64,000 nucleotides of DNA. It comes from Candidatus Aminicenantes bacterium. GTDB taxonomy: Bacteria > Acidobacteriota > Aminicenantia > Aminicenantales > UBA4085. The notes under the pieces were generated by a model. The model ran no database searches, was not told where the DNA came from, and was given only the letters and a program-made list of their open reading frames with translations. The translations under genes and the position numbers were made by a program. Of the stretch, positions 6,096-64,000 are shown piece after piece. Where the stretch lies: positions 971,701-1,035,700 of the forward strand of contig CAWANZ010000002.1 of assembly GCA_963783665.1 (NCBI GenBank). The letters run 5' to 3'. The first letter of the stretch is position 1, and every line of letters starts with the position of its first letter.

Positions 6096-8054
6096 CATGC
6101 TCACCCTGAAAGAGACCACTCTCGCGCCCGTGCTCGACGAACGGCCTCGAGGACCCTATCCGATCGCGCCCCGAAGACATCGACTTTCTCTACCCGCCGC
6201 AGGCCAAAATTCGGCGACATCGCCCTGTCCCTGCCCGATGCCGCCTGGCCAAGAAGCCTAGGAAAACCCGCGCAAGATCGCCCAGAAGATGATGGCCGAA
6301 ATCGGGGCGACTTCCCGGTGTCGCTCCGGATGGAAGTCGCCGGGGCCGGGCTTCATCAACTTGTTCCTGGACCGGGACGCCTTTTTCGCGGACCGCCTGG
6401 CCGCGCCGGACGGACCGCCCTCCGGCCCGACGAGCGAAAAATCATCGTCGAGCACACCAACATCAATCCCAATAAGGCCGCCCATATCGGCCATCTCCGC
6501 AACGCCTGCCTGGGCGACACCCTGGTCCGCTGCCTGCGCTTCAAGGGCGAGACCGTCGAAGTCCAGAACTACCTCGACGATACCGGCGTGCAGGTCGTGG
6601 ACGTCGTCTTCGGCTTGATGGAGCTCGAAGAGAAAACCGCTCGCCGACCTGGACGGCATCGAGCGGTTCGACTACTACTGCTGGGATCTTTATGCCCGGA
6701 CGGCCGCCTAGCTGGAATCGCCACGCCGCGAGAGCCAGGCCCGCAAAGCCGAGATTCTCAAGGGCATCGAGCACGGCCGGAAGCCGAGGCCGGAGCCATG
6801 GCCTTCGCCGTCTCGCGCCGGATCGCCCGGGCCCATCTGCGACCATGAAGCGGATCGGCGCGACCTATGACGTCCTGCCCTGCGAGAGCGAGCATCCTCG
6901 GCCTCAAGTTCTGGGAGCGGGCCTTCGCCCTGCTAAAGAGCGCCAGGCGCCATCACCCTGGCCGGGGAAGGCCCCAACGCCGGCTGCTGGGTCATGAAGT
7001 GGAGGACGAGGAGGACCGGGAAAAAATCATCGTCCGGAGCGACGGCACGGTGACCTATGTCGGCAAGGATATCGCCTACCAGATGTGGAAATTCGGCCTC
7101 CTCGGCCGGGACTTCTACTACGAGCCGTTCGCCGAGGACGAACGGCCGGACGCTCTGGATCCGACCGCGGAGCCCAACGACCGGACGATCGGGTTCGGCG
7201 GCGGCAGCCGGGTCTACAACGTGATCGACACCCGCCAGGCCTATCTCCAGAAGGTCGTCGTCCAGGGCCTGCGGGCCCTCCAGCTTCGAGGCCCAGGCCG
7301 CCAAGTCCATCCACTTTTCCTACGAGATGGTCGCCCTCTCGCTGCGGAGCCTTCAAATAGCTCGGGCTCGAAGCCGACGGCCGAGGAAGGCGAAGGGCTT
7401 CGTCGAGGTCTCCGGGCGGAAAGGGCTCGGCGTCAAGGCCGACGACCTCCTCGACCTCCTGGAACGGAAAGCCGGGGCCGAGGTGGACAAGCGCAATCCC
7501 GGAGATGCCGGAGGACGTCCGGCGGCGGACGGCCGCGGCAATCGCCCGCGGCGCGCTGCGGTATTTCATGCTGAAATTCGCCCGGAACTCCCTGATCGTC
7601 TTCGATGTCGACGACGCCTTGAGCTTCGAAGGCGAGACCGGGCCTTATCTCGATGTATACCGTCGTCCGGCTCAACAGCATCTTCCGCAAGCTCGGGGAG
7701 CGCGAAGGCCGCGGACGCGGCCGACCTCGGAGCCCGGAGCCGCCGCCGGCGCTGGCCGGCGTTCGGCCTCGTCACGGAGGCCGAGGGCGACGAGCTCTGG
7801 GACCTCGTCGGGACCGCGGCCGAAGATTCGAGGAGGAAGTCCTGCACTCCGTCGGCTCGCTCGAGTTTTCCCACCTGGCCAAGTTCGCCTTCCTCCTGTC
7901 CCAGAAAGCCAACGCCTATTACCACCGCCGCCCGGTCCTGGCCGAGGAGAACGCGGATATTAAAAACGTGAGGATTTGGGTGCTTGATTACGTTCGCGGA
8001 ATCCTCGCCAAAGCCCTTGGGTTGATGGGCCTCGACGTGCCCGAGAGGATGTGA
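6096..8054 (+). CDS. argS: arginyl-tRNA synthetase, split over at least five reading frames
   Basis: N-terminal additional-domain-like sequence, then NINPNKAAHIGHLRNA (the HIGH motif). The catalytic core in ORF 6867..7574 includes VRSDGTVTYVGKDIAYQ and FGGGSRVYNVIDTRQAYLQ. Anticodon-binding/DALR-like parts lie in ORFs 7505..7963 and 7653..8054, ending ...VPERM at the stop 8052-8054. Confidence 0.8.
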
Positions 8055-26440: not shown

Positions 26441-26602
26441 GAATCCTCCTCCTGCGTCCCGGATCTCCGGGACGCCGGAGTTCAACCTATCGGATTTTTC
26501 GGGTAAAATCAAATCTTCGAGGTCCGTTTTGACAGGCAGGCCCCGGGTGTGGGATAGTGGCCCATCCTGGGTCCTATGAGGCCGGGAAAAGGAGTATTTT
26601 CG

Positions 26603-28768
<2,166 letters not shown>

Positions 28769-28782
28769 GGAATTTTTTTATT

Positions 28783-29045
28783 CTCTACCCCTCCTACCGC
28801 CCCTAGGACTCGGGGCGGACGGCACGTCAGCCTATTAACAGGAATTCATTTTAGTTCCGAGGAGGCGTAACAAGATCGTTCCTTAGATCTTATCCCCCCT
28901 TCCCCCCTTCCAAGAAGGGGGGCCCCGAAATGTCCGCCTACAAAAAGGAATTTATTTTAATTCCGAGGAGGCGTGACAAGATCAATCGATCTTATCCCTC
29001 CCCCTTCCAAGAAGGGGGCCCCGAAACACGTCCGCCTCCTCGTAA
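28783..29045. repeat. cluster of composite GC-hairpin repeat units (two alpha hairpins, one beta hairpin and two AT-hairpin linker segments) directly 3' of tRNA-Ser(GCT)
   Basis: Beta unit: ctaccgcccctaggactcggggcgg (28793-28820), stem ccgcccc/ggggcgg. Linker ggaattcattttagttccgaggaggcgtaacaagatc is repeated as ggaatttattttaattccgaggaggcgtgacaagatc. Alpha units: cttatccccccttccccccttccaagaaggggggccccgaaa (28880-28920; stem ccccccttc/gaagggggg, loop caa) and cttatccctcccccttccaagaagggggccccgaaa (28994-29029). Homologous copies lie at 60318-60470 and 62205-62630. Confidence 0.6.
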
Positions 29046-29052
29046 TAAGGTA

Positions 29053-29143
29053 CGGAGAGGGCGGGATTCGAACCCGCGGTCCCGGTTTTAGCCGAGACAA
29101 GCGCTTAGCAGGCGCTCCTGTTCGGCCACTCCAGCACCTCTCC
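29053..29143 (-). tRNA. tRNA-Ser (anticodon GCT), class II with a long variable arm
   Basis: Reverse complement reads GGAGAGG-TG-CTG-GAGTGGCCGAA-CAG-G-AGCGC-CTGCTAA-GCGCT-(22-nt variable arm)-GCGGG-TTCGAAT-CCCGC-CCTCTCC-G. The 7-bp acceptor, 3-bp D stem, U33, anticodon GCT and A37 are all consistent with Ser. CCA is not encoded. Confidence 0.85.
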
Positions 29144-29479
29144 GCGGCTGCGAAGTCCCGGCTATTCTACCATTTGCCGGAAGGCGGAAACAACCGGAAC
29201 CATCTTAGCGTATTTCCATCCGTCGTTTTTTCCCCTTTTTGCCTGTCGAAGAACGACCCTACATTTGGGATTTTTGAAAACACTTGGCTCGTCTTCGCAT
29301 ATTGTTCTTCGCCGCAATCCAGGATCGGAAAGCCGGTACAAATTACCGGCCTCGAATTAGAGACCGACCGAATAGGCCGCCATATTCTCGTAACTACGAC
29401 CCACACAAATCCGGACATGAGTACCAAAAATAGTTCTATTAATTGGATAATTTCACTTGAGAAAAATCAACAAAACCCC

Positions 29480-30687: not shown

Positions 30688-32096
30688 ATGAGTCTCAAGA
30701 AGCTGGCCATTCTCATCATCGTGATCGTCCTGACGATCATCGTGGCCATCTCATGCAAAACGCAAAACATCATGCGGGGGGCCCATCGGGAAGACCGGGC
30801 CGGATGGACGTTGGTCCACCTGGAAGGCGCCTCCCGGGAGATCGGCTACCAGCACGGCCGGTTGCTTGCGGCCGAGATCGACGACCTTTTAAAAGCGATG
30901 GCGGTCAACCTGGAAAAGACCACCGGGCGCGACTGGCCGTTCTTCCGCAAGGCGGCCGAAACCATCCTCTGGCCGAAGATCGATCGGCCGGTTCAAATGG
31001 AGATCGAAGGCATCGCCGAGGGGCTTGCAGGCCGGGATCCCCGGATTGAAGTATGATCGATTCGATATCGCCGCCCTCAACGGCTGGATGGAGCTGGCCT
31101 GGTACTACGTCCCCGTCCTCGAGGCCGAAAATAAAGGGACGGCGGTCGAATCGAAGGCCCCCCCGTCCTGCAGCGCCTTCATCGCCACCGGGAGCTATAC
31201 CGCGGACGGCCGGATCGTCATCGCCCACAATATCTGGATGGATTACCTTACGGGCGAGCGGTGGAACGTGATCCTGGACATCGTCCCGGACACCGGGCGG
31301 CGGATGCTCATGGACGCCCTGCCGGGATTCGTCCACAGCGGCTCGGACTTCGCCTTTAACGACGCCGGTCTCCTGTTCACGGAGACGACGATCGCCAAGT
31401 ACGCCGGCTTCAATAAGGACGGCGTCCCCAGCTTCTCCCGCTCCCGCACGGCCGCCCAGTACGCCGCTTCCATCGACGATTTCATCCGCATCATGACGAC
31501 GAACGGAAACGGGGCGATGGCGAATTCCTGGCTGATCGGCGATCTGAACGCCAACGAAATCGCCCGGCTCGAGCTCGGGCTGAAAAACCACCGGGTCTGG
31601 CGGACGGGCGACGGGTATTTCGTCGGATCCAATTTCCCCTCCGACGAGAAGCTGATCGCCGAGGAAACAACCTTCGACCCGGGCGACGGGAGCCAATCGG
31701 TCTTCGTCCGGCGGGACCGCTGGGAGCAGCTCATGGCCGAAAATAAAGGGAAAATCGACATCGAAAAAGCCATGGCCTTCCTCGGCGACCATATCGATCC
31801 GAGAACGGGCGAAACCGCCGCGGGCGCCGACGCGACTCTGCGGGCATGTCGACCGGGATCCCAAAGGCGCGCCGGAATTCTTTTATCCGCCCTTCTGCCC
31901 GGCCGGCTCGACTCAGGGCAAGGCCACTTCGGCCGCCTTGGCCGAACAGATGAAATTCTGGGCCCGGATGGGCCACGCCTGCGGCGAGGATTTTGCGGCC
32001 GAGCCGTTTGCCGCCGCCCATCCCGAATTCGCCTGGCAGCTTCCTTACTTGAAAGACATGAAAGCCCATCCCTGGACCCTCTTCCAGGGGAAATGA
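30688..32096 (+). CDS. peptidase C45 / acyl-CoA:6-APA acyltransferase-like Ntn-hydrolase lipoprotein; two frame changes
   Basis: Lipoprotein signal MSLKKLAILIIVIVLTIIVAISC. Putative N-terminal nucleophile context PPSCSAFIATGSYTADGRIVIAHNIWMDY. The family-typical length and motifs are spread over ORFs 30688..31056 and 31025..32107 plus a third frame that ends ...HPWTLFQGK at the stop 32094-32096. Confidence 0.6.
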
Positions 32097-32109
32097 ATTC
32101 GGAATAATT

Positions 32110-32167
32110 CGGGGCCAGGTTACTCAACTCCCGAACCCGAGATCGGGAGTTGAGTAACCTGGCCCCG
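32110..32167. repeat. perfect palindromic element (MITE/REP-like): 25-bp arms cggggccaggttactcaactcccga with a 7-nt spacer
   Basis: Left arm 32110-32134, spacer acccgag, right arm 32143-32167 is the exact reverse complement, followed by atctttt. It lies 14 nt after the C45 stop. The same arms recur at 37861-37919 (full), 37297-37321 (half) and a diverged relative at 33892-33976. It also creates two artefactual ORFs that start MSNLAP on both strands. Confidence 0.8.
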
Positions 32168-32234
32168 ATCTTTTACCGATCTATTATGGAATATCGGCTT
32201 CCGCTGATCGTCTTTTTATTGGAGAATAAAGACG

Positions 32235-33846: not shown

Positions 33847-33889
33847 CCCCGGACCGGTTTCCCCACGAAAACCGGCCCGGGGCTTTTTA
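33847..33889 (+). terminator. rho-independent terminator-like hairpin followed by a T run
   Basis: ccccggaccggttt-ccccacg-aaaccggcccgggg, followed by cttttta. It lies immediately after the 33817 stop. Confidence 0.55.
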
Positions 33890-33891
33890 TT

Positions 33892-33976
33892 GGTGCCAGG
33901 TTAACCATTCCCCGATTAATTCAAATCTCCGGCGTTCGCGAAATAGGAGAATGGTTAACCTGGCACCGATTAAATA
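33892..33976. repeat. second palindromic element related to the 32110 family: 20-bp terminal inverted repeats around a 44-bp core
   Basis: tggtgccaggttaaccattc (33892-33911) and its exact reverse complement gaatggttaacctggcacca. The arms align with cggggccaggttactcaactcccga (shared gccaggtta-c-c...tcccga). The right flank cgattaaatac is tandemly duplicated. Confidence 0.7.
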
Positions 33977-35383: not shown

Positions 35384-37294
35384 ATGAATAAAAACCTGAT
35401 ATTGAAGGAATGGAAGGAAAAGCTCTGGGTTCCGATTTTCGCCCTGGTTTTTCTCGTCCTGTTCGCGATCGCCGCCGTCGCTTTTGCCAAGCACGGAGAC
35501 ATCCTCGATTATCTGACCGGCGGGATCCAGATTTTCTTCCTCCCGCTCATCGGCGTCCTCCTCGGGGCGAGCGCCTTCAGTGCCGAATTCAAGGACGGCT
35601 CCTGGGCTTATCTCTTTTCCCGGCCGATTAAAAAATCCTCGATCTGGATTTCGAAATTCGCCGCCCTGGCCGGCCTGCTGGCCGCAATCGTCGCCTTCAC
35701 GTATCTCATCCTTCCCCTCATCCCCGGCTTCAAAGAACGCCTGGCCGAAGCGCCGCTCTGGGGACTCAGCCTTTTTATTTCGTTCAGCGTGTATATCGCT
35801 TCCTTCTCCCTGGCCTATCTCTCTGAAAAGCCGGTCCTCACTTTTTTTCTGACGCTCTTTATCTTCACCGCCTTTGCCGTTCTCGCGGTACTCCTTATAA
35901 AAGCCCTCGACTTTTCTTCTTTCAGGTCCCGCTCCCTTCAGGACGTGCCGTTTCTTGTGATTCTATTCACCTTTCTGGGCATTTTCGCCCTCGGTGCGGC
36001 TTCGCTTTACGCCTTCTGCCGGACGGATTTTTCCCGCCCACAGTCCAAGATCTCCGGATTCCTGAAATCCCTCGTCGTCTTCCTGGCCATCGGGACGGTT
36101 ACCGGCGGCGCTGGATGGCTCATCGCCCGGCAATTCCCGCGCCCAACGTTTATTCGCATGATTTCCGACGGAGAAGGTTCCATACTGCATCTCAACCGGG
36201 GAGTCTTCCGTTATGATTCCCAGCGCAATCGGTTGGAGAAATTGATCCGTTTCCAAAGACAATACTGGCTTGCCAGCCCCGCAGTCGGCGGCGGAAAAAT
36301 CACATGGGCCAAGGAATCAGTCAAAGGTTCAAGGCAGCGGCTAACTTGGGACCAAGAGCTCTGGATCATGGATATCGATGGCCGCAACAAACGGGCTATT
36401 TTTCATACCTCAGACAAGCCCGATTCCCCGCTTGCCGGAGACATGATTTATCATCTCAGTGTCTCACCCGATGGGAAACGGCTGATTCTGGTTTCCGATC
36501 CGGGATCACGATCGGGACATAAAAGAATTTGTAGCCTCAACAACGATGGGACGGGTCTTCGCTTCTACAGCACCGATCTTACTTACCTCGACTGGATCAA
36601 CGGCCTGTGCTGGTCATCAGACAGTCGAAGGATCGTGTTCGCGGCGACGATCAGACCGTCTGAAAGAGCTTCAAACAAACAAACGATCCGATATTTTCTC
36701 CTGGACCTGGAGGCCGGAGAATGGACCATGCCGCCCGAAGACCTCAGAGGATTCTCTGTCTATGGCGCGTCGCCAGATGGCAAATTGCTGGGTTACTTCG
36801 GGACCGACACGGCCGATGCCGCCTCCCCGAAAGAGATGCTCCGCTATTACAATATCGATACAAACGCAATTTCCGACATCGTCGCCGTTTCGCGCATCCA
36901 GTTGGCTAAATGGAGCCCGGCGGGTGATCGGATCGCTTTCCTTGCCGACTCCGGCCGCCGCCTGGGAATCATATCCGTTTCTGAAAAAACGCTTCTTGCG
37001 GAAACAGCCCTTGAAAAAGCCGAAATTGAAGCCCGCATTCCGAGGTCCATGGCCTGGACCTTGGACGGACAGAAGATCATTCTGGCCGATTTCCGCAATT
37101 CCGTACACGTCCTGCGGATCTTCGATCAGGCTCTCCGCGAAATCAAATCATTCCCCATTCCTCGGGAAGATATCCCTCTCGAGCATCTCCCGCAGCTTTA
37201 CTCGACCGGGGATAAGATCCTCGTTATGGATTTCACCGCCTCCCGGCTCTGGTCCTTCGACCCGGCCACGGAGAAGTGGAAGAAGCTGCTTTGA
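35384..37294 (+). CDS. ABC-2-type permease (6 TM) fused to a C-terminal TolB-like beta-propeller (PD40/WD40-like repeats)
   Basis: Intact 636 aa within the frame of ORF 34859..37294, from MNKNLILKEWKEKLWVPIFALVFLVLF. Six hydrophobic segments up to about aa 290. Then repeated HLSVSPDGKRLILVSD / YGASPDGKLLGYF / AKWSPAGDRIAFLADS motifs typical of TolB/PD40 blades. Confidence 0.65.
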   Translation: MNKNLILKEWKEKLWVPIFALVFLVLFAIAAVAFAKHGDILDYLTGGIQIFFLPLIGVLLGASAFSAEFKDGSWAYLFSRPIKKSSIWISKFAALAGLLAAIVAFTYLILPLIPGFKERLAEAPLWGLSLFISFSVYIASFSLAYLSEKPVLTFFLTLFIFTAFAVLAVLLIKALDFSSFRSRSLQDVPFLVILFTFLGIFALGAASLYAFCRTDFSRPQSKISGFLKSLVVFLAIGTVTGGAGWLIARQFPRPTFIRMISDGEGSILHLNRGVFRYDSQRNRLEKLIRFQRQYWLASPAVGGGKITWAKESVKGSRQRLTWDQELWIMDIDGRNKRAIFHTSDKPDSPLAGDMIYHLSVSPDGKRLILVSDPGSRSGHKRICSLNNDGTGLRFYSTDLTYLDWINGLCWSSDSRRIVFAATIRPSERASNKQTIRYFLLDLEAGEWTMPPEDLRGFSVYGASPDGKLLGYFGTDTADAASPKEMLRYYNIDTNAISDIVAVSRIQLAKWSPAGDRIAFLADSGRRLGIISVSEKTLLAETALEKAEIEARIPRSMAWTLDGQKIILADFRNSVHVLRIFDQALREIKSFPIPREDIPLEHLPQLYSTGDKILVMDFTASRLWSFDPATEKWKKLL

Positions 37295-37296
37295 AT

Positions 37297-37321
37297 TCGG
37301 GAGTTGAGTAACCTGGCCCCG
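37297..37321. repeat. solo half-copy (one arm) of the 32110-type palindromic element
   Basis: tcgggagttgagtaacctggccccg begins 3 nt after the permease stop (tga 37292-37294). The flanks gaat...gaatta match the full copy at 37861. Confidence 0.6.
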
Positions 37322-37341
37322 AATTATCGGAATGCGGAAGA

Positions 37342-37839: not shown

Positions 37840-37860
37840 TCACCGGTATTATAACGAAAT

Positions 37861-37919
37861 CGGGGCCAGGTTACTCAACTCCCGAATTCGAATTCGGGAG
37901 TTGAGTAACCTGGCCCCGA
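37861..37919. repeat. second full copy of the palindromic element; a perfect 59-bp palindrome
   Basis: cggggccaggttactcaactcccga-attcgaat-tcgggagttgagtaacctggccccg. The spacer completes the palindrome (cccgaattcgaattcggg). It lies in the divergent region between the PAP2 (minus) and kbl (plus) starts. Confidence 0.8.
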
Positions 37920-37996
37920 ATTACTTTCCTTGTGGTATCATGATGTCAGACGGCTGCCCGGACGGCCGGGCCTGACCGGGCACGAGGAGGATTCCC

Positions 37997-56110: not shown

Positions 56111-57311
56111 ATGAAAGACCGCATCTCCATCTACCAAATCGCGGCCAAAAACCTGCTGCGGAAAAAGACCCGCACCCTCGCTGACCATCCTCGGGATCGG
56201 CCTGTCGGCCTGGGTCCTGACCAGCCTGTTCGGCTTCAACCGAGGCTACGAGGAAGCCCTGAACAAGGACATCGACAACATGGGCTTCCAGGTCCTTCTG
56301 ACGGCCAAGGGCTGCCCGTACGAAGCGGCCACCCTGATGCTCAAGGGCGGGACCGGCCTCCGCTACATGCCCGAGGCGGTCTTTGCCGACATCCTGAAGA
56401 ATCCGGAAGTCGAGAAGATCACCCCCATGCTGATGCAGGCCGTCTTCGACCCGAACAAGGGCGAAAGCGGCGGGATCAGCGCCTACCTCGGCGTCGACCC
56501 GGCCACCTATCCGGCGATGAAATCGTTCCTCGAGTTCCGGCAGGGCGCCTGGTTCACCGACCCGGACAGCCACGAAGCCGTCCTGGGGTACGAGGCGGCC
56601 GAGCTCGAGCAGCGCGAGGTCGGCGACAAGATCCTGGTCACCGAGAAGAACATCGAATACACCGTCGTCGGCATCCTCGGCCGCTCGGGAACCCAGGACG
56701 ACGGGACGATCTTCGTCCCGATCCGGACCCTCCAGAAGGATTTCGCCCAGGAAGGGAAGGTCACGGCCGTCGGGATCAAGGTGAAAAAAGAGGCCAACAT
56801 CGTCGAATTCGAGAACAAGCTCTACGACCTGCCCGACGTCCAGGTCGTCTCCATGGCCCAGGTCAAGACGACCATCATGTCGCTCGTCTCGACGGCCAAG
56901 GTCATGGTCTTCTCCATCGCCCTGATCGCCATCCTCATCGCCATGCTCGGGGTCATCAACACCATCCTGATGTCGGTCTTCGAGCGCTTTCAGGAGATCG
57001 GGATCATCAAGAGCATGGGGGCCATGCCCTGGGACGTCTTCCGGATGATCTGGACCGAGACGGTCATCCTGTGCCTGCTGGGCGGGACGATCGGCGTCGG
57101 CTTCTCCTTCGGCATGGCCAAGCTGACCGACCTTCTCATCCGCCGGCTCCTGCCCTACACGCCGACCGGGAGCCTGATCATCGTCAACGGCCGCCTGGCC
57201 CTGATGACCCTGGGCATCGTCCTCGTCGTCGGCCTCGTTTCGGGCTTGTACCCGGCCTGGCGGGCCGCCCGGGTCCGGCCCCTTGAATCCATCCGGAGCG
57301 AAGGAGAATGA
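56111..57311 (+). CDS. MacB/FtsX-type ABC transporter permease; one frame change near 56180
   Basis: N-terminal TM (corrected: RTLLTILGIGLSAWVLTSLFGF). Large periplasmic domain. FtsX C-terminal module: IALIAILIAMLGVINTILMSVFERFQEIGIIKSMGAMPWDVFRMIWTETV ... VSGLYPAWRAARVRPLESIRSEGE. Confidence 0.8.
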
Positions 57312-57313
57312 CC

Positions 57314-58009
57314 ATGGCGACCCAAAGCGTCCCGCCCTCGAAGCCCAATCCCTGCGGAAAGTCTATCATCGCGGCGCCGAAGACATCGTCGCCGTCGACG
57401 ACATTTCCCTGTCCGTGGCCAAAGGCGAATTCGTCTCGTTCATCGGCCCCTCGGGCTCCGGGAAGACGACCCTGATCAACCTCCTCGGCTGCCTGGACAA
57501 TCCCACCTCCGGCACGCTTGCCCTTTCGGGAGAGACCGTTTTTTCCGCCTCCAAGTGCCTCTCGGAATCCGATCTGACCCGGATCCGGCGCCGCGTTTTC
57601 GGCTACATTTTCCAGAAGTTCTATCTCGTCCCGACTCTGACCGTCATGGAAAACGTCCTCCTCCCCTTCGCTTTCTTATAAAAAGCCGAATATCGTCGCC
57701 GACCCGCATGGACATCCTGCCGGTCTCTCGGGATGGAGAAGCGCTTCGACCACAGACCCGGCGGAGCTTTCCGGCGGTGAGATGCAGCGGGTGGCCATCG
57801 CCCGGGCCCTCATCAACAAACCCGAGATCCTCCTGGCCGACGAGCCGACCGGAAACCTCGATTCCAAGCGGAGCGAGGAGATCGGCCAGGTCCTCAAGAC
57901 GCTCAACGAGCGGGACGGCCTGACGATTCTCCTCGTCACCCACAACCCGATGCTGGCCGGCTTCGCCCACCGGACGATCGCCCTCCGTGACGGCAAGGTG
58001 GAGGGATAA
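57314..58009 (+). CDS. ABC transporter ATP-binding protein (MacB/LolD-like); one frame change near 57335
   Basis: AAGGAGA RBS, ATG 57314. Walker [12 protein letters not shown]-loop [17 protein letters not shown]. Signature [15 protein letters not shown]. Walker [14 protein letters not shown]-loop LLVTHN. The stop is at 58007-58009. Confidence 0.8.
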
Positions 58010-59164: not shown

Positions 59165-60317
59165 TCTCTCCGCGACACGGTTTCTCTTTTCCTTGACAGG
59201 CTCTTTAAGGCCGCGTTATATTCAGTTCATCGAACTGATAGGGCGGGGCATGAAACGCAAACGCGGAATTCGGGCGGCGGTGATGGTCGGCTTGGCGAAA
59301 ACGATACCCTCCGGAGCTCTTCGCCAATGATATCCAACGGCTAATCGTGGATGCGGGCATCAACCTGGCGGTTGTGGCAGGCGCAGGTAGAATTGTTCGA
59401 CACGCCTTCCACCGATCGCTGCCAGGTTTCCTACGCCACGAATGCGTTCAATGCCATTGTGGAAATCCGAAGCCGGCTCATCGGCCCCATGGACAATATC
59501 AACCTGCAGTCCGATCTCGATCAAATCAGCATGTACCCGGCCGCCACGGAAAGTCAGAGCGCCGTCACCGGGCGAGCAATGTCCACGGCATTTACTGGCT
59601 GTTGCGAAGCCGGCTGTCCGTGCTCTTCCTTTCGACCCGCGGGATTTACGCCAGCCCGAATTGCGACAGCTCCTTTCTGGACGTCGGCTATTACTTAGGC
59701 CGGGGGCGGATAGGAGCCTTTGCAAACAACGAATACGTGATGTCGAACGCTCCCGCGCCATGATGCTCGAGGCCATCGGGGCTGGAAAAGACTTGGCTGT
59801 GCGCTGCCCCTGCACCTACAACGTGGAAAACGCGGTGGGGAGCGATTCCATGGTCAACGCCAGAACCTTGGAGGATTTGAGAAGCTCGTCGAACCGAGCA
59901 AGGGGACCGCGGCCGTAGCTTAACTGGTTTTCCCGAGGGATCTCCGATTTCGCCCTGGTCCCCGCTCAGTTCCACTCCCCCTCCGCCTGCGCCGAATCCT
60001 TCGGCTTCCCTCCTCGGGACGTGGAGGATAGGAGACCGGGTCGACCACGATTTTCGCCCAGGCGGGGAATATGAATATCGGGACAGCACAAAACCTGGCG
60101 TCTGTCTTAATTAATCTCGGCTACCGAGAAGGGATGAACATTCCGAATTCACGGGCGGTTCCCAGGGCGTTTATACGGGCCAGATGAACATACGTGGCTG
60201 CAGACGGCAATTTCCTTGCAAAAATTGGCGCGTCACGGTGAGCGGGAACACGGCCACGTTAAGCGATATGTTCGAAGGGGGCCGGGCCACGTATACCGCC
60301 ACAGAATCCAGTGATAT

Positions 60318-60470
60318 TCCCCCCTTACTGATAAAGGGGAATTCGTGAGAGTAGGACGAGGGCGCCTCGCAAGACTCAACCATAAATTCTCTACCCCACC
60401 TACCGCCCCTAATACAGGGGCGGACGGCAGGACGGCGCCCCTCAGTGAAAGTACGAGGGGGGGGGGATTA
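60318..60470. repeat. third locus of the composite GC-hairpin repeat family (one alpha-like and one beta unit) at the border of the AT-rich islet
   Basis: ccccccttactgataaagggg hairpin (60319-60340). ctaccccacctaccgcccctaatacaggggcggacggcagg (60395-60435; stem ccgcccc/ggggcgg), followed by a G10 homopolymer (60457-60466). Confidence 0.55.
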
Positions 60471-60822
60471 GAATAATCACGGCCGCCTGCCTGATAATAG
60501 TCATTTCTCGGGGAAATATGCCGCGGACAGACCGTCATTGAGCGCCACAAATAGACACTCTCTGTTACATTTTGAGGGACATTATTTCCGTTCAAATATT
60601 CCCTTCGAAAATAGTCTCTGCGGACCGCAATGAGGTTCGTGGCGCGTCAGTCTACCCTACCGTCTATATCACTCTCCTGGACGCAGAAATATATCAAGGC
60701 GTACTTTATTAAAAAGAGATTCTCGGCATTCAAAGAGAAAATATATGTTGATATATATTATTTTCGCTTCTCAAGCATTAAATCGGATTATTATTCAACC
60801 TTACCGTTATATTCGATAATTC

Positions 60823-61943
60823 TCATTCATATATACCTTTGATTAAGTTGTAATTATTAATTTTCACTATTACTAATTTACTTTTTTCTTCATCATCACT
60901 ATTATTTTTTATTATTGCATATATCATTCCTTCCTTAATTACCTTCGGAAATACTGGAAATTGCACTTTATATAAATAAAGCGCATCTTTCCCAATAATA
61001 TCAATCTCCTCTTGAATATCGTCATCGATTATCGATTTTTTTCTCTAATAACATATATTAGTCCTTTTTCATCGGATAGCAAACCACTTATAAAAGGACG
61101 ATTTTCAGGAATATTAGGAGTAATTTTTATTTGTACTCCAGATATTTTAGTATTATTCACTATCTTTTCTATTGCGTTTTTCTCTTCGATGCTAACTTTT
61201 TGGGGTTTTTGTTTTATCGAAATAGATTCTTTCATCGTCCCGTCTTCATCATATGAAAACACTTGATAATTTGTATTATCTGCGTACAACAAACCATTTT
61301 CATTTATTATTGAATAAAAGGCTCGTTTTTTATAAGGGTGACTAATAGATATATTTATCTCACTTATTTTTGTGCTATTTTCATCAATACTCAATGAAAC
61401 GATTTGCCTTTCAGCCTTTCCATTTGAATTTATTTTATATAATGCAAGCTCATTATTATTGCTCACATCTCTTCTCATCGTATACATTAAACACATTTTA
61501 TTAATACATACATCGTATTCTGGAAGTAATAATAAATTAATATTTTTTTGAAACGTTAGATTTTTGTCAAATAAGACAATTTTATATCTATCAAATATAT
61601 AAATGTTTCCCAAATAATCACAAGATACTTTATTGGGTATTTGTTGAAACTCTCCAGGCTCTTGCCCGAATATGAATTTTTTACTAACGATTATTTCACT
61701 ATCTTTGCTAATTTTTAATATATAAGCATTCGTAATCGCAATAATATTTTCCTCAATATCTACATCAAAATCATATGCCTCATAGTTTTCAGTATTATTA
61801 ATAAATATTGGAAATTCAAGTACAGTTTTTTGCTCATACTCAAGAAGAAATTCTCCATATATTGGCTTTGGCATATTAATAATACTTTTAATATTATCGA
61901 ACGAAGCAATAATAATATTAAATAACAATATTAGAGAAATCAT
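60823..61943 (-). CDS. low-GC lipoprotein-like beta-propeller protein (resembles Bacteroidetes 6-bladed beta-propeller / BF3164-type lipoproteins); one frame change at a T7 run
   Basis: About 30% GC versus about 65% for the window. AGGAGGA RBS, then ATG 61943. N-terminal hydrophobic MISLILLFNIIIASF. Repeated blade-like IYIFDRYKIVLFD / GLLYADNTNYQVFSYDEDG motifs. The ORF stops at 61029, but one extra T in the T7 run (61036-61042) continues it for 69 codons (KKSIIDDDIQEEIDIIGKDALYLYKV ... NYNLIKGIYE) to a stop at 60823-60825. Confidence 0.55.
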
Positions 61944-62204
61944 ACTTTCCTCCTAATAATGGCAGTGTTAGGAAATCTGTGTAAACCGCTTATTTCCATT
62001 TACGCTTGTCCCCCCATCCGATCATCGAAATATATCATTAACTGGGAATATATCAGTAGCGCAGTCTCTCTGCCGAAAGGTCCATTATTTCTGCAGCATC
62101 TTCCACGGTGAGGAAGACTTGTTTGAGGCTCTGGATCGGATTCATTGTATAGACCATGATCCGGATTTCCGGAGGATATTTAAAAACAGACTAGGAGCGG
62201 TTGG

Positions 62205-62630
62205 CCGGAACTGCAGGAAATATTTTATTCCGAAGACGCGTGCCAAGATTTTTCTTTCCTAACTCCCAAGGGTCGTGAAGGACCGGCAAAGCCTCGAGAT
62301 CTTATCCCCCCTTCCCCCCTTACTAATAAGGGTGGAGTTTGTCAGCGCTAAGACCGGGGTGCTTTTAAGACTTTTCTTATTGGTATCTACCTATCCTACC
62401 TTCCCTAGGACTAGGGAGAGGACGGCTAAAGCCGGCAGGAAGTATTTTATTCCGAAGACGCGTGCCAAGATTTTTCTTAGACCTTATCCCCCCTCCCCCC
62501 TTCCAAGAAGGGGGGCCCAGAAAACTGAAAGTTAGCGCCCCTTTTGCCCGGAGCGCTCACAATTTTCCTTAGGTCTTATCCCCCCTTCCCCCCTTACTAA
62601 TAAGGGGGGAATTCGTCAGCGCTCCGGGAG
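62205..62630. repeat. array of composite GC-hairpin repeat units (three alpha hairpins, one beta-like unit and two AT-hairpin linker segments) directly 3' of tRNA-Ser(TGA)
   Basis: Linker ggaaatattttattccgaagacgcgtgccaagattttt occurs twice (62218-62255 and 62441-62478). Alpha units: cttatccccccttccccccttactaataagggtgg (62293-62330), cttatcccccctccccccttccaagaaggggggccc (62484-62520) and cttatccccccttccccccttactaataagggggg (62571-62607). Beta-like unit: cctaccttccctaggactagggagagg (62393-62420). The last unit ends 7 nt before the tRNA 3' end. Confidence 0.6.
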
Positions 62631-62636
62631 AGGTTT

Positions 62637-62724
62637 CGGAGGGAGGGGGATTCGAACCCCCGTTCCGGGGATACCGGAAAGCGGTTTTCAAGACCGCCGC
62701 CTTCAACCACTCGGCCATCCCTCC
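62637..62724 (-). tRNA. tRNA-Ser (anticodon TGA), class II
   Basis: Reverse complement reads GGAGGGA-TG-GCC-GAGTGGTTGAA-GGC-G-GCGGT-CTTGAAA-ACCGC-(long variable arm)-GGGGG-TTCGAAT-CCCCC-TCCCTCC-G. It has U33, anticodon UGA and A37. The listed ORF 62569..62778 on this strand is an artefact of it. Confidence 0.85.
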
Positions 62725-62734
62725 GATACTCATA

Positions 62735-64000
62735 TCAAATCGACATGGGACAAGATGAACGCCATCGTGGCCGGCCAAGAAAAGATCGTTCCTTCCCGCT
62801 ATCCCCCCGTTTCGGGGAGCTTTTATGATCGGGTAATCCGGGCAACCCGTTCATGTAGGGGCGCAAAGCCTGGGGAATGTCGATCGCCCCGCTTTCGTCC
62901 TGATAATTCTCGAAGATCGCGGCCACGGTCCGGCCGACGGCCAGGCCGGATCCGTTGAGCGTATGGACGAATTCCGGCTTGGCCTTGGGATCCCGGCGGA
63001 AGCGGATATTGGCCCGGCGGGCCTGGAAATCGCCGCAATTGGAGCAGGAGGAAATCTCCATGAAGCCCCGACGCGTCGGCATCCAGACTTCCAGGTCGTA
63101 GGTCTTCCGGCTGGCAAAACCCATGTCCCCGGTGCAAAGGGCCATGACCCGGTATGTCAGGCCGAGGCGCTTGAGGACCTCCTCGGCGCCCGCGGTCATG
63201 TATTCGAGCTCCTCCATCGATTTTTCGGGGAGGGAGAAGATCATCATCTCGACCTTGTTGAACTGGTGCTGGCGGATGAGCCCGCGGATATCCTTGCCGT
63301 AGGAGCCCGCTTCCGACCGGAAGCACGGAGTATAGGCGGCAAACCGCCTCGGCAAGGCCCCGTCCATAATCTCGTCGCGGTAGAGGTTCGTCAGCGGCAC
63401 TTCGGCCGTCGGGACGAGATACCAGGGCAGACCCTCCAGCTTGAACAGGTCCTGGGCGAATTTCGGGAGGTTTCCCGTCCCGGTCAGGCTCGCCTCGTTG
63501 GCGATGAACGGCGGAACGACTTCGGTGAATCCCCGCTCCCGGGTGTGGATATCGAGCATAAAATTGATCAGGGCTCGTTCCATCCGGGCTGCCGCGGCCA
63601 TGTAGACCGTGAAGCGTGAGCCGGTGATTTTCGCCGCCCGGTCGAAATCCAGGATCCCGAGGGTCGTTCCGAGATCCCAATGGGCTTGTGGCTCGAAATC
63701 GAAACTCCGGGGCTCCCCGAGCCGCCGAACCTCGACGTTTCCCCCGGCGTCAAATCCCACCGGGACGGAGTCGTCGGGCAGATTGGGGATATTGAGAAGC
63801 GTCATCCGGATCTGATCGTCTAAGGGCTTCAGCTCCTCTTCCAGCACCTTGATCCGGTCGCCGACCAGCTTGGTTTCGGAAATGAGGGCGGACGCGTCGC
63901 CGCCCGAGCGCTTGAGTTTGGCGACCTCTTCGGAGGCCTTGTTCCGCTGGGCCCTGAGGTCCTCGACCTTGTGCAAGGCAACTTTCTTGGCCTCGGACAG
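62735..64000 (-). CDS. serS: seryl-tRNA synthetase; the 5' end lies beyond the window; a C-terminal extension is possible from a late frame change
   Basis: N-terminal coiled-coil ...[20 protein letters not shown]. Class II core: [56 protein letters not shown] and [22 protein letters not shown]. The usual C-terminus [11 protein letters not shown] is followed by about 35 extra residues before the stop at 62735-62737. Confidence 0.85.

Follow-up and report, generated by a model that had tools for sequence, protein, structure and literature searches.

Units with a putative intrastrand triplex motif lie behind tRNA genes in Candidatus Aminicenantes

A 64,000-nucleotide stretch of the genome of a Candidatus Aminicenantes bacterium (contig CAWANZ010000002.1, positions 971,701 to 1,035,700; hereafter the window) carries a GC-rich hairpin repeat at three loci, two of which lie directly behind tRNA-Ser genes. 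What are these repeats, and what is their relation to the tRNA genes? A sequence-only reading had proposed that all three loci hold one modular family, and the coordinates, the shuffled controls and a covariance model agree on this point. The repeats span 28770-29042, 60317-60440 and 62216-62628 (window coordinates throughout) in one common orientation. Each of the module patterns had 0 matches in 100 shuffles of the window, and a covariance model built from relatives, run over the 64 kb with its filters off, gave matches at E<0.01 solely within 28770-29052, 60392-60423 and 62298-62637. All family members of the window sit at the three reported loci. The two tRNA genes of the window (ARAGORN, Rfam) are both on the minus strand, and the closing stems of the nearest repeat units end 7-9 nt from the tRNA ends, close to the distance first described; the third locus does border an AT-rich islet, with 27% G+C. 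Related loci that were fetched for comparison are designated by L-numbers, L022-L049 being viral contigs.

The repeats probably form a lineage-specific extragenic family of Candidatus Aminicenantes (Acidobacteriota) with units of ~80-100 nt and the structure described below. To the wider explanation, that these are tRNA-anchored repeats built on a triplex motif and folding in single-stranded DNA (ssDNA), we give a probability of roughly 0.6. Read on the G-rich strand, which is the tRNA sense, a unit opens with ~7 nt of pyrimidine spacer. Next come the 5' arm of the closing stem (P1), which has 10-13 bp, and ~7 nt more. There follow a G+C hairpin, CCCCCCTT-loop-AAGGGGGG, a 2-nt linker and GGGGGGAT, which mirrors the purine arm. 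The 3' arm of the closing stem comes last, after an A-rich spacer of 20-30 nt to which one sub-type adds an AAGATC/GATCTT hairpin. The best copy, at 62547-62628 on the minus strand, consists of the spacer ACCTCT, the P1 arm CCCGGAGCGCT, GACGAAT, the hairpin TCCCCCCTT-attag-TAAGGGGGG, the linker AA, the mirror tract GGGGGGAT, the A-rich spacer AAGACCTAAGGAAAATTGTG and the P1 arm AGCGCTCCGGG. The unit beside tRNA-Ser(GCT), at 28964-29042, has the same plan with the AAGATC/GATCTT hairpin in addition, and the array copies beyond the complete units are shortened or decayed versions of it, as judged by the covariance model.

This anatomy revises the modules first proposed, which were a beta hairpin, an AT-rich linker and an alpha unit. 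A model built from alpha-1 copies also recovers alpha-2 and beta copies, and alpha and beta are therefore variants of one unit type rather than separate modules. The alpha stem CCCCCCTT/AAGGGGGG, described as nine all-G:C pairs with a 3-nt loop, has 6 G:C and 2 A:T pairs and loops of 3-6 nt. The linker does contain the small AT hairpin noticed in it, but its remainder is an arm of the closing stem (CGAGGAGGCG, which pairs with CGCCTCCTCG). Copies turned up in Candidatus Aminicenantes assemblies when one genome per species was scanned for the exact motif, and the same scan of metagenomes found at least 120 loci. We found no description of the Aminicenantes repeats in the literature. Against Rfam 15, only the tRNAs scored at or above the gathering threshold and relaxed scans were at chance level; a match of 30 bits to sX4 at a relaxed threshold was owed largely to its tRNA part and was set aside.

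The most invariant part of the unit is the mirror strand. In all well-preserved units the purine arm is followed by two bases and then by a tract that reads like the arm backwards: AAGGGGGG-NA-GGGGGGAT in standard alpha units, TAGGGAGGG-CA-GGGTGGGT in L006, L069 and L177, GGAGAGGGGA-TA-AGGGGAGT in L105, AGAGGGGAGG-TA-GGTGGGGTGA in L080 and AGGGGCGG-TA-GGTGGGGT in beta units. On the window's minus strand the whole motif reads CCCCCCTT-loop(3-7)-AAGGGGGG-NA-GGGGGGAT, and the order is the same in all model matches. Across the variants the following tract obeys a rule of substitution: opposite G it has G, opposite A either A or T, and opposite C a T. The antiparallel purine-motif triple helix has this code, and the hairpin with its mirror strand is accordingly a putative class II purine-motif intrastrand triplex motif. 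Class II motifs are defined by at least 6-8 triads, drawn only from C-G-G, T-A-A and T-A-T, with at most one mismatch (PMC4666352), and the units have by sequence stems of 8-9 triads with 0-1 mismatch. A general triplex finder returned three strict motifs in the window (62578-62609, 62485-62515 and 28891-28922), all inside units and all on the minus strand, and none in 20 shuffles.

The code was evaluated in 14 variant classes with interrupted G runs. With a linker of 2, it (G*G-C, A*A-T, T*A-T, T*C-G) is obeyed at 6.86 of 8 positions, compared with 3.5-4.6 of 8 in the other registers. Permuting the tails among the variants gave 5.35 +/- 0.25, and the observed value was reached in 0 of 10,000 permutations, a figure that is no clean probability as the variant classes are related by phylogeny. 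At least six different interruption patterns are mirrored. Judged from the sequences of natural variants, mirror covariation according to the triplex code is shown. Opposite an A of the arm, the third strand has A 47 times and T 52 times, and both are valid for a triplex on the G-rich strand. On the C-rich strand, a pyrimidine-motif triplex would have an invalid triad at about every second A-T, so we rejected that fold and take the G-rich strand to be the folding one. Pairing of the second G tract with the C arm in an alternative hairpin, or a simple direct repeat, was also rejected: mirrored identity is 5.9/8, against 5.0/8 in the best direct register, and T stands opposite T. A double pseudoknot like that of hepatitis delta virus, formed by the pyrimidine spacer and the second G tract, is possible in its topology; it was dropped, as there is no covariation and the 8-bp hairpin does not resemble P3. 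A hammerhead was discarded as well, as CUGACGA and GAAAC occur in some units only, unconserved and in the wrong order.

Two G tracts in one unit also raise the prospect of a G-quadruplex, in DNA or in an RNA:DNA hybrid, as at conserved sequence block II (CSB-II) of mitochondria, where quadruplexes mediate termination and priming. The variant TAGGGAGGGCAGGGTGGGTAAG of L006 and L177, which has four G3 runs with loops of 1-2 nt, would suit such a fold, and vertebrate mitochondrial control regions carry CCCCCCTACCCCCC. However, the uninterrupted G6 runs number only two in most units, with one of the two paired in the hairpin, and variants such as GGAGAGGGGA-TA-AGGGGAGT are without four G runs. Nor does a quadruplex predict the mirrored interruptions, the presence of A or T opposite A, or T opposite C. 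We consider this explanation very improbable.

A second line of evidence comes from the closing stem, which evolves by compensatory change. Two-sided changes are present in 8 of the 11 P1 pairs among 22 seed units, which had been picked for intact stems. The unselected model matches, with 64 distinct full-length rows, contain 637 Watson-Crick pairs, 21 G.T, 11 A.C and 35 others, and ~25 different closing-stem sequences that are fully complementary, examples being CCCGGAGCGCT/AGCGCTCCGGG, CCCGGGATGCT/AGCATCCCGGG, CCCTCGATGCT/AGCATCGAGGG, CCCAACGCGCT/AGCGCGTTGGG and CCGAAGACGCC/GGCGTCTTCGG. Loci that were fetched through the neighbouring SerS protein, and not through the motif, added new complementary stems (CCCGAAACGGT/ACCGTTTCGGG in L177 and CCCCAAGCGCC/GGCGCTTGGGG in L179). 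At tRNA-Asp loci, one stem position is seen as G-C, G.T and A-T. The distance between the arms varies between sub-types, which fits base pairing better than the binding site of a dimeric protein.

The repeats had been credited with a tropism for tRNA-Ser, which does not hold: units are found behind Ser(GCT, TGA, CGA), Asp(GTC), Val(TAC, CAC), Glu(TTC), Cys(GCA) and selenocysteine (SeC) tRNAs. Among ~40 model matches of at least 75 bits, 24 follow an intact tRNA, 7 a tRNA 3' fragment and 6 lie in arrays that a tRNA starts, with 3 elsewhere. In related Aminicenantes sequences the units start ~7 nt after the tRNA end. The fetched non-viral loci contain 48 distinct tRNAs, and a sense motif lies no more than 130 nt downstream of 28 of these, an antisense motif downstream of none; upstream, the motif was seen at 1 of 44 tRNAs. 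The motifs are therefore not scattered evenly without enrichment near tRNAs, the pattern expected of ordinary intergenic repeats. Where tRNAs are clustered as Lys-Glu or Gly-Cys, the unit comes after the last one (Glu or Cys) and never lies between clustered tRNAs, and no unit lies behind transfer-messenger RNA (tmRNA) or signal recognition particle (SRP) RNA in the one case seen of each. As a control for ascertainment, eight serS-tRNA-Ser(TGA) loci were fetched by homology to SerS (76-95% identity). Units are present in five of the eight (decayed in L174, two beta units in L175, and L177, L178 and L179); two have none (L176, and L180 with a SerS identity of 76%) and one, L173, has an IS200-like element. 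The association of units with tRNAs is strong, not obligatory, and not specific to tRNA-Ser.

In the 7-nt spacer between tRNA and unit (for example 62629-62635 in the window, L004 and L108), CC(A/T) always stands two bases ahead of the closing stem. At tRNA-Cys the CC of the spacer belongs to the tRNA's own CCA. The Ser tRNAs next to units have no encoded CCA, and the unit-free relative L180 encodes one.

The placement described above also suits a unit that acts as RNA, that is, as the co-transcribed 3' trailer of the tRNA, serving as a non-canonical terminator, as a barrier to processing or RNases, or as the source of a stable small RNA. The units are always in the tRNA sense (28 versus 0), their closing stem starts ~7 nt past the tRNA after a conserved pyrimidine spacer, and they occur solely behind the last tRNA of a cluster. 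The stem changes are compensatory, with intermediates of the G.U type, and the folds are strong, with z down to -5.8. Neither of the two tRNA-linked arrays has a canonical terminator-like site on the tRNA strand, where the unit hairpin is followed by NAGGGGGGATAAG, and there is a parallel in Methanopyrus kandleri, where a palindrome ~10 bp after tRNA genes was proposed as a signal for 3' maturation (PMC5217627). An intrinsic, Rho-independent terminator was rejected, as no T run directly follows the G+C hairpin. An RNA function, however, leaves the mirror strand and its covariation unexplained, since RNA reportedly does not form purine-motif triplexes (PMC4666352). It also has to contend with the missing U tract, the absence of any Rfam family match, the absence, decay or exchange of sub-types at orthologous tRNAs, the tRNA-free arrays in both orientations, and the lack of units behind tmRNA and SRP RNA (one case of each). 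None of the evidence gives the proposal of small structured RNAs an advantage over DNA: covariation of the closing stem suits RNA or DNA alike, and the mirror covariation fits a triplex that is reported to form in DNA only (PMC4666352). We view the RNA explanation as plausible but unlikely.

Units decay and are exchanged at orthologous sites. Behind tRNA-Glu, L079 has an alpha-1 unit, L080 an alpha-2 unit and L069 a remnant, and L068 and L103 have none. The Ser(TGA) sites, too, differ in sub-type between genomes, and the comparison of orthologous loci that had been called for revealed presence/absence polymorphism (5/8 of the loci fetched through SerS have units). Tandem units abut with a period of 81-110 nt; values of 81-87 nt were recorded among the tandem copies of the family. 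The genes upstream of serS-tRNA-Ser are conserved, and those downstream differ in every relative.

The sequence-only reading had stated that the repeats contain no tRNA 3'-end sequence. This is true within the units, but a decayed tRNA end lies beside the beta unit of the third locus. In L168 and L017, a beta unit is followed by the intact 22-mer acggagggagggggattcgaac, the last 22 nt of tRNA-Ser(TGA), and then by aatcacgg. The window has a remnant at 60453-60474 that is identical to the tRNA-Ser(TGA) end at 17 of 22 positions and matches the tRNA at 62636-62657; the junction after it, AATCACGG at 60475, is common to the window, L168 and L017. Given this remnant, the islet, its ORFan gene and the array at 62216-62628 lie between a displaced tRNA end and the intact tRNA. 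L069 and L109 have the same layout as the third locus. In L109 the array is followed by a Phage_integrase fragment, and the flanking repeat of ~135 bp consists of the 3' part of the tRNA together with a unit. Att repeats are marked by a direct repeat of the tRNA 3' end on the far side of an insert, and such a repeat is seen in the flank and not in the units. Units are shown to be co-duplicated with tRNA 3' ends at the borders of integrated islands. The suggestion of att-like footprints of a mobile element therefore needs dividing: the units are not att duplications themselves, but they are duplicated along with tRNA 3' ends at island borders, and their flanks are hypervariable. In L001 and L132, where there is no island, the conserved interval from tRNA-Ser to a convergent phospholipase-B-like gene is filled by units, so units are not simply the cargo of islands.

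Further rearrangement may have taken place around these sites. The two tRNA-Ser genes are 2-9 kb apart in the relatives L001, L132 and L179, with the phospholipase-B-like gene between them, and 33 kb apart in the window, where that gene lies at 31025-32107; ~28 kb (about 32100-60300) have seemingly been inserted or rearranged behind tRNA-Ser(TGA), a region that L168 shares. The closest relative is L173, with a SerS identity of 95%. Directly behind its tRNA-Ser(TGA), at 7420-8000, is an IS200-like element with a Y1_Tnp gene and end hairpins of its own, CCCCAGGC...GCCTGGGG, and no unit was detected from there up to the contig end. In one unit (L009 4767-4854 and L146 706-767), the tRNA-side arm of the closing stem is swapped for the 3' end of another tRNA (TTCGAGTCTCTCCAGGCGCGCACCA) in the opposite orientation, a sequence arrangement that suggests recombination or integration inside a unit.

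Such turnover could mean that the unit is a miniature mobile element, similar to miniature inverted-repeat transposable elements (MITEs) or repetitive extragenic palindromic (REP) sequences, with the closing stem as its terminal inverted repeats and an integrase or a Y1 enzyme of the IS200 or REP-associated tyrosine transposase (RAYT) type inserting it in trans. The different sub-types behind one tRNA across genomes (alpha-1 in L079 and alpha-2 in L080 for Glu; also Ser(TGA)), the presence/absence polymorphism and the Y1_Tnp element directly behind tRNA-Ser in L173 would all agree with this. So would the position of the fold on what GC skew marks as the likely lagging-strand template, the strand that is the substrate of Y1 transposases. 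But the L173 element has unrelated end hairpins and no model match in its locus, no transposase gene with flanking units was found, and the tRNA ends share no common target sequence. Stems differ within one genome and track the tRNA species across genomes, which is more like evolution in place than bursts of transposition. The unit borders have no target-site duplications either, and a MITE was rejected on such flanks (in L004, for example, TTCCTTT on one side and CAATTAA on the other). We think a mobile element of this kind improbable.

The core of the motif recurs outside the lineage. In cyanobacteria, Chloroflexi and other lineages (L003, L007, L014, L018, L056, L071, L089 and many more) it lies within a full two-step palindrome, TATCCCCCC-TN-CCCCCCTT-loop-AAGGGGGG-N2-7-GGGGGGATA, in which the second G tract has a possible pairing partner in the outer C tract. 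The 19-mer core TATCCCCCCTNCCCCCCTT is also found in 28 viral contigs (for example at L024 3665-3683, L028 5160-5178 and L029 4473-4491), and the reversed control in 3. In at least six unrelated phage groups the core comes after iteron-like direct repeats and an A-rich tract, often with a short G run following it, and it lies inside genes that PHROGs calls replication protein, replication initiation O-like or primosomal protein; one of these genes adjoins an open reading frame (ORF) read by eye as DnaB-like. The core is translated in three frames, as IPPTPL, LSPLPPL and YPPSPPF, and its conservation in phages therefore lies in the DNA. The arrangement recalls lambda, whose origin lies inside gene O, and from its sequence context the core in phage initiator genes looks like a component of an origin. 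Upstream of the motif in L026/L028/L043/L046 and in L022/L041, direct repeats CCCGAACGCC are close to the closing-stem arm CCCGAAACGCT, by chance or by common descent. The full unit model had no match in the phage loci, and megablast of the viral motif regions against named phages gave none. If the presence in phage initiator genes holds up, it would link the motif to replication origins.

On these grounds the units could be the remains of tRNA-integrating elements, that is, attP-arm or origin-like modules that sat beside the tRNA-like core of islands or phages. Units do lie on the island side of intact tRNAs and beside displaced fragments (in the window, in L069, and in L109 with its integrase fragment), the L109 flanking repeat spans both the 3' part of the tRNA and a unit, and the phage core follows iteron-like repeats and an A-rich tract inside replication-initiator genes, with the iterons CCCGAACGCC of two phage clusters resembling the arm CCCGAAACGCT. 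Yet the units of L001 and L132, between tRNA-Ser and the phospholipase-B-like gene, have no island, the full unit model matches no viral locus at E<0.001, and the units of arrays are not separated by repeats of a tRNA core. Moreover, elements of many tRNA specificities would all need the same module. We regard this origin as quite improbable.

We thus return to a tRNA-anchored triplex-motif repeat. As the mirror strand is the most invariant part of the unit and purine-motif triplexes are reported for DNA only (PMC4666352), the state under selection is probably ssDNA. In it the G-rich strand, which is the non-template strand of the tRNA unit, would fold into the closing stem and the triplex. 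GC skew is negative on the plus strand, which makes the minus strand the likely lagging-strand template, exposed at each replication. Such a fold may hinder polymerases, and hindrance of this sort would explain the slippage-type tandem arrays as well as the instability of the flanks. The unit might act as a boundary element, in R-loops or in termination, behind heavily transcribed tRNA genes that are without canonical terminators. Any particular function of the units is put forward tentatively, and we find each doubtful.

Several observations weigh against this explanation. The loci were mostly ascertained through the motif itself, and, beside the shared phylogeny of the mirror-test classes, the alignment of the closing stem was fitted to the G-rich strand. 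That stem has a weak strand asymmetry (21 G.T versus 11 A.C), and the ~7-nt spacing, sense orientation and operon-end position are equally expected of a co-transcribed RNA element. In L063, alpha-2 units also form intergenic arrays that have no tRNA, and do so in both orientations. Some orthologous tRNAs have a decayed unit or none, so any function of the units is dispensable. Finally, in vivo footprinting of the Escherichia coli triplex motif TMECO detected no stable triplex (PMC4666352).

In a more specific form, the motif would be a functional DNA signal in which the displaced G-rich non-template strand folds into closing stem and triplex and so locks an RNA:DNA hybrid. Depending on context, the locked hybrid would end transcription or provide a primer or barrier for replication, as a counterpart of CSB-II in bacteria and phages. 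We judge both parts of this proposal distinctly unlikely; if it were true, the covariation reported here would be the first evidence of in vivo selection for a purine-motif triple helix. The conservation of a triplex base code across many variants is in any case comparative evidence of selection on a three-stranded fold. The fixed address of the units, in one orientation and ~7 nt after the last tRNA, makes hypotheses of termination, R-loop formation, replication-transcription conflict and 3' processing testable. The units also mark tRNA flanks that are hypervariable and prone to islands, which is useful for annotating uncultured Aminicenantes genomes and for explaining contig breaks.

The features of the three loci are collected in Table 1. 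The serS-tRNA-Ser arrangement is kept in relatives, and the SerS of the window is 73-95% identical to serine-tRNA ligases of Aminicenantes and Acidobacteriota. The sole match to the ORFan protein of the islet among 5.8 billion proteins is itself, and it has no Pfam match. The tex gene (26576-28768) is split over two or three frames, as is an ABC ATPase gene (57283-58009); these are pseudogenes or assembly indels, and homopolymer lengths in the repeats may accordingly carry errors.

Table 1. Units of the repeat family and accompanying features in the window
Feature	Position	Strand	Details
Unit 1a, beta sub-type	28770-28824	minus	model match 28770-28818; without distal closing-stem arm; abuts tex stop codon at 28768; hairpin 28793-28822
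Small AT hairpin GGAATTcattttAGTTCC	28841-28858	.	by sequence
Unit 1b, alpha-2 sub-type	28858-28939	minus	model match 28859-28952, 46 bits; triplex finder; strict triplex motif 28891-28922; AAGATC/GATCTT hairpin 28872-28891; closing stem partial only
Small AT hairpin GGAATTtattttAATTCC between units	28947-28964	.	followed by TTTTT in tRNA sense; too weak for terminator status
Unit 1c, alpha-2 sub-type, closest to tRNA	28964-29042	minus	model match 28963-29052, 27.3 bits; closing stem 28964-28973/29033-29042 (CGAGGAGGCG/CGCCTCCTCG), plus GAC/GTC; AAGATC/GATCTT hairpin 28978-28993; G+C hairpin with decayed mirror strand; fold -46.7 kcal/mol, z -5.0
tRNA-Ser(GCT)	29052-29144	minus	anchor of locus 1; ARAGORN; Rfam tRNA, 54.2 bits
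Decayed alpha remnant	60317-60339	minus	counterpart unit complete in relative L168 (12455-12540)
Unit 2b, complete beta unit	60360-60440	minus	covariance model; fold z -3.6; closing stem GGGCGCC 60360-60366/GGCGCCC 60434-60440, covarying in L020 (GGGACGCC/GGCGTCCC); hairpin CCGCCCC/GGGGCGG at 60399-60427; mirror strand in minus-strand reading AGGGGCGG-TA-GGTGGGGT
Decayed remnant, last 22 nt of tRNA-Ser(TGA)	60453-60474	minus	by-eye alignment with L168 and L017
Inserted islet, from remnant to unit array	60475-62215	.	27-45% G+C; single ORFan gene 61029-61943 (-), 304 aa
Unit 3a, distal half of alpha-2 unit	62216-62256	minus	AT hairpin 62216-62231; closing-stem arm GAAGACGCGTGCC 62232-62244
Unit 3b, alpha core	62298-62349	minus	model match 62298-62335, 29.3 bits; mutated arm (GGGTGG); closing-stem arm without 5' partner
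Unit 3c, beta-like	62354-62435	minus	model match 62354-62444, 22.5 bits; stem CCGG(ggt)GCTTT 62354-62365 pairs with AAAGCCGG 62428-62435; hairpin 62395-62425
Unit 3d, alpha-2 sub-type	62438-62524	minus	model match 62465-62515, 34.9 bits; triplex finder; triplex motif 62485-62515; AT hairpin 62438-62453; tRNA-side closing-stem arm missing
Unit 3e, complete alpha-1 unit	62547-62628	minus	model match 86.8 bits, E 4.6e-22; triplex finder; closing stem CCCGGAGCGCT 62547-62557 pairs with AGCGCTCCGGG 62618-62628; perfect 8-triad triplex motif 62578-62609; fold -49.4 kcal/mol, z -5.8
tRNA-Ser(TGA)	62636-62725	minus	anchor of locus 3; just downstream of serS 62735-63976 (-)

Two further observations concern the window. 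Matches to the sigma-70-like promoter consensus, and to the consensus only, lie on the minus strand at 62468-62441 and 62246-62219 (TTGGCA, 16 nt, AATACT or AATATT; 9/12); they consist of the alpha-2 closing-stem arm and the small AT hairpin and are directed away from the tRNA. An unrelated second family, of long near-perfect palindromes made of AATTCGGGGCCAGGTTACTCAACTCCCGAA and its complement, occurs at 32092-32185, 33885-33974, 37290-37327 and 37857-37923, and two of its copies, separated by 5.7 kb, make up an inverted pair of 65 nt with 94% complementarity.

How do the units compare with known systems? A CRISPR array had been discounted at the outset and this was confirmed: the units abut with their period of 81-110 nt and have no unique spacers. 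Integron attC sites, of which each gene cassette has one, are imperfect palindromes that end in the inverse core RYYYAAC and the core GTTRRRY. The stem arms CCCGAAACGCT/AGCGTTTCGGG and their variants are without GTTRRRY, and there is no room for cassettes between units, so attC was rejected too.

At tRNA-integrating islands, direct repeats of the tRNA 3' end mark the borders, and integrase-less elements (cis-mobilizable elements, CIMEs) accrete in tandem. The third locus, L008, L016, L069, L083 and L109 share with these the succession of intact tRNA, insert and displaced tRNA 3' fragment, with units co-duplicated. Unlike att repeats, the units hold no tRNA sequence, occur without an island (L001, L132) and have no att cores within their arrays.

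At mitochondrial CSB-II and in the G-run/C-run of ColE1, tracts of this kind promote persistent RNA:DNA hybrids, termination and priming. The likeness to CSB-II lies in a nearly identical core, CCCCCCTACCCCCC, and in the position downstream of a strong promoter or, in the phage copies, beside a replication origin. CSB-II has no hairpin partner and no closing stem, and the resemblance is a lead only.

REP sequences are, to our knowledge, not anchored to tRNA genes. Together with bacterial interspersed mosaic elements (BIMEs) and with GTAG- and CGTC-tagged repeats (PMC3733652), they resemble the units as small G+C extragenic hairpins that are clustered, variable between relatives and possibly active in ssDNA. 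The units, by comparison, are larger and asymmetric and have a mirror strand. They have no GTAG at the stem foot, and CGTC, which reads GACGA on the G-rich strand, is variable: about half of the alpha-1 units have it, at a distance of 3 nt from the hairpin. No RAYT gene with flanking units turned up, and the one Y1_Tnp gene seen (L173) has other end hairpins. The suggestion of a REP/BIME-like intergenic family is borne out in kind, in that this is a structured extragenic repeat, built on a triplex motif of the BoxC/PIT type.

In Methanopyrus kandleri, CGTTA(N)9TAACG lies ~10 bp downstream of about half of the tRNA genes (PMC5217627). This is likewise a lineage-specific inverted repeat at a fixed short distance behind many tRNA genes. 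It differs from the units in being archaeal and a simple 19-nt palindrome, with no triplex motif, arrays or link to islands reported.

The closest likeness in structure is to intrastrand triplex motifs, which Holder et al. 2015 (PMC4666352, citing the Maher laboratory) described from thousands of prokaryotes' genomes. TMECO, formerly BoxC/PIT, is the G/C-rich class II example, 5'-CCCTCNCCC N3-6 GGGNGAGGG N3 GGGNGAGGG. As isolated DNA it forms a stable triplex, as seen by circular dichroism and nuclear magnetic resonance, and in vitro it is a block to DNA polymerase; it acts neither as promoter nor as terminator, has no strand or gene bias, and is tied to instability of its loci (PMC4666352). 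The Aminicenantes units share with it a pyrimidine arm, a loop, a purine arm, a short second loop and a reverse-Hoogsteen G-rich strand, all on one strand, as well as the triads C-G-G, T-A-A and T-A-T, stems of 8-9, extragenic location in multiple copies, and a link to variable DNA. The motif class occurs in Enterobacteria and cyanobacteria, Microcystis being very rich in G/C triplex motifs (PMC4666352), and Microcystis-type copies of the unit core were recovered here (L003, L095, L139, L161). The TMECO consensus has 0 matches in the window, the nearest sequence being CCCTCCCTA/TAGGGAGGG-NA-GGGTGGG of L006 and L177, with a 2-nt second loop; the units therefore represent a different sequence family of the same structural kind. 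TMECO is unbiased with respect to strand and genes and is not tied to tRNAs, whereas the Aminicenantes units have a fixed orientation ~7 nt after tRNA ends, and every copy in the window lies at a tRNA-linked locus. In contrast to TMECO, their motif is also one part of a larger unit, which has a covarying closing stem and an A-rich spacer besides, and the units form short tandem arrays. The class of triplex motif is already known; what is new is that, unusually, it is anchored to tRNA ends in one orientation within a larger unit.

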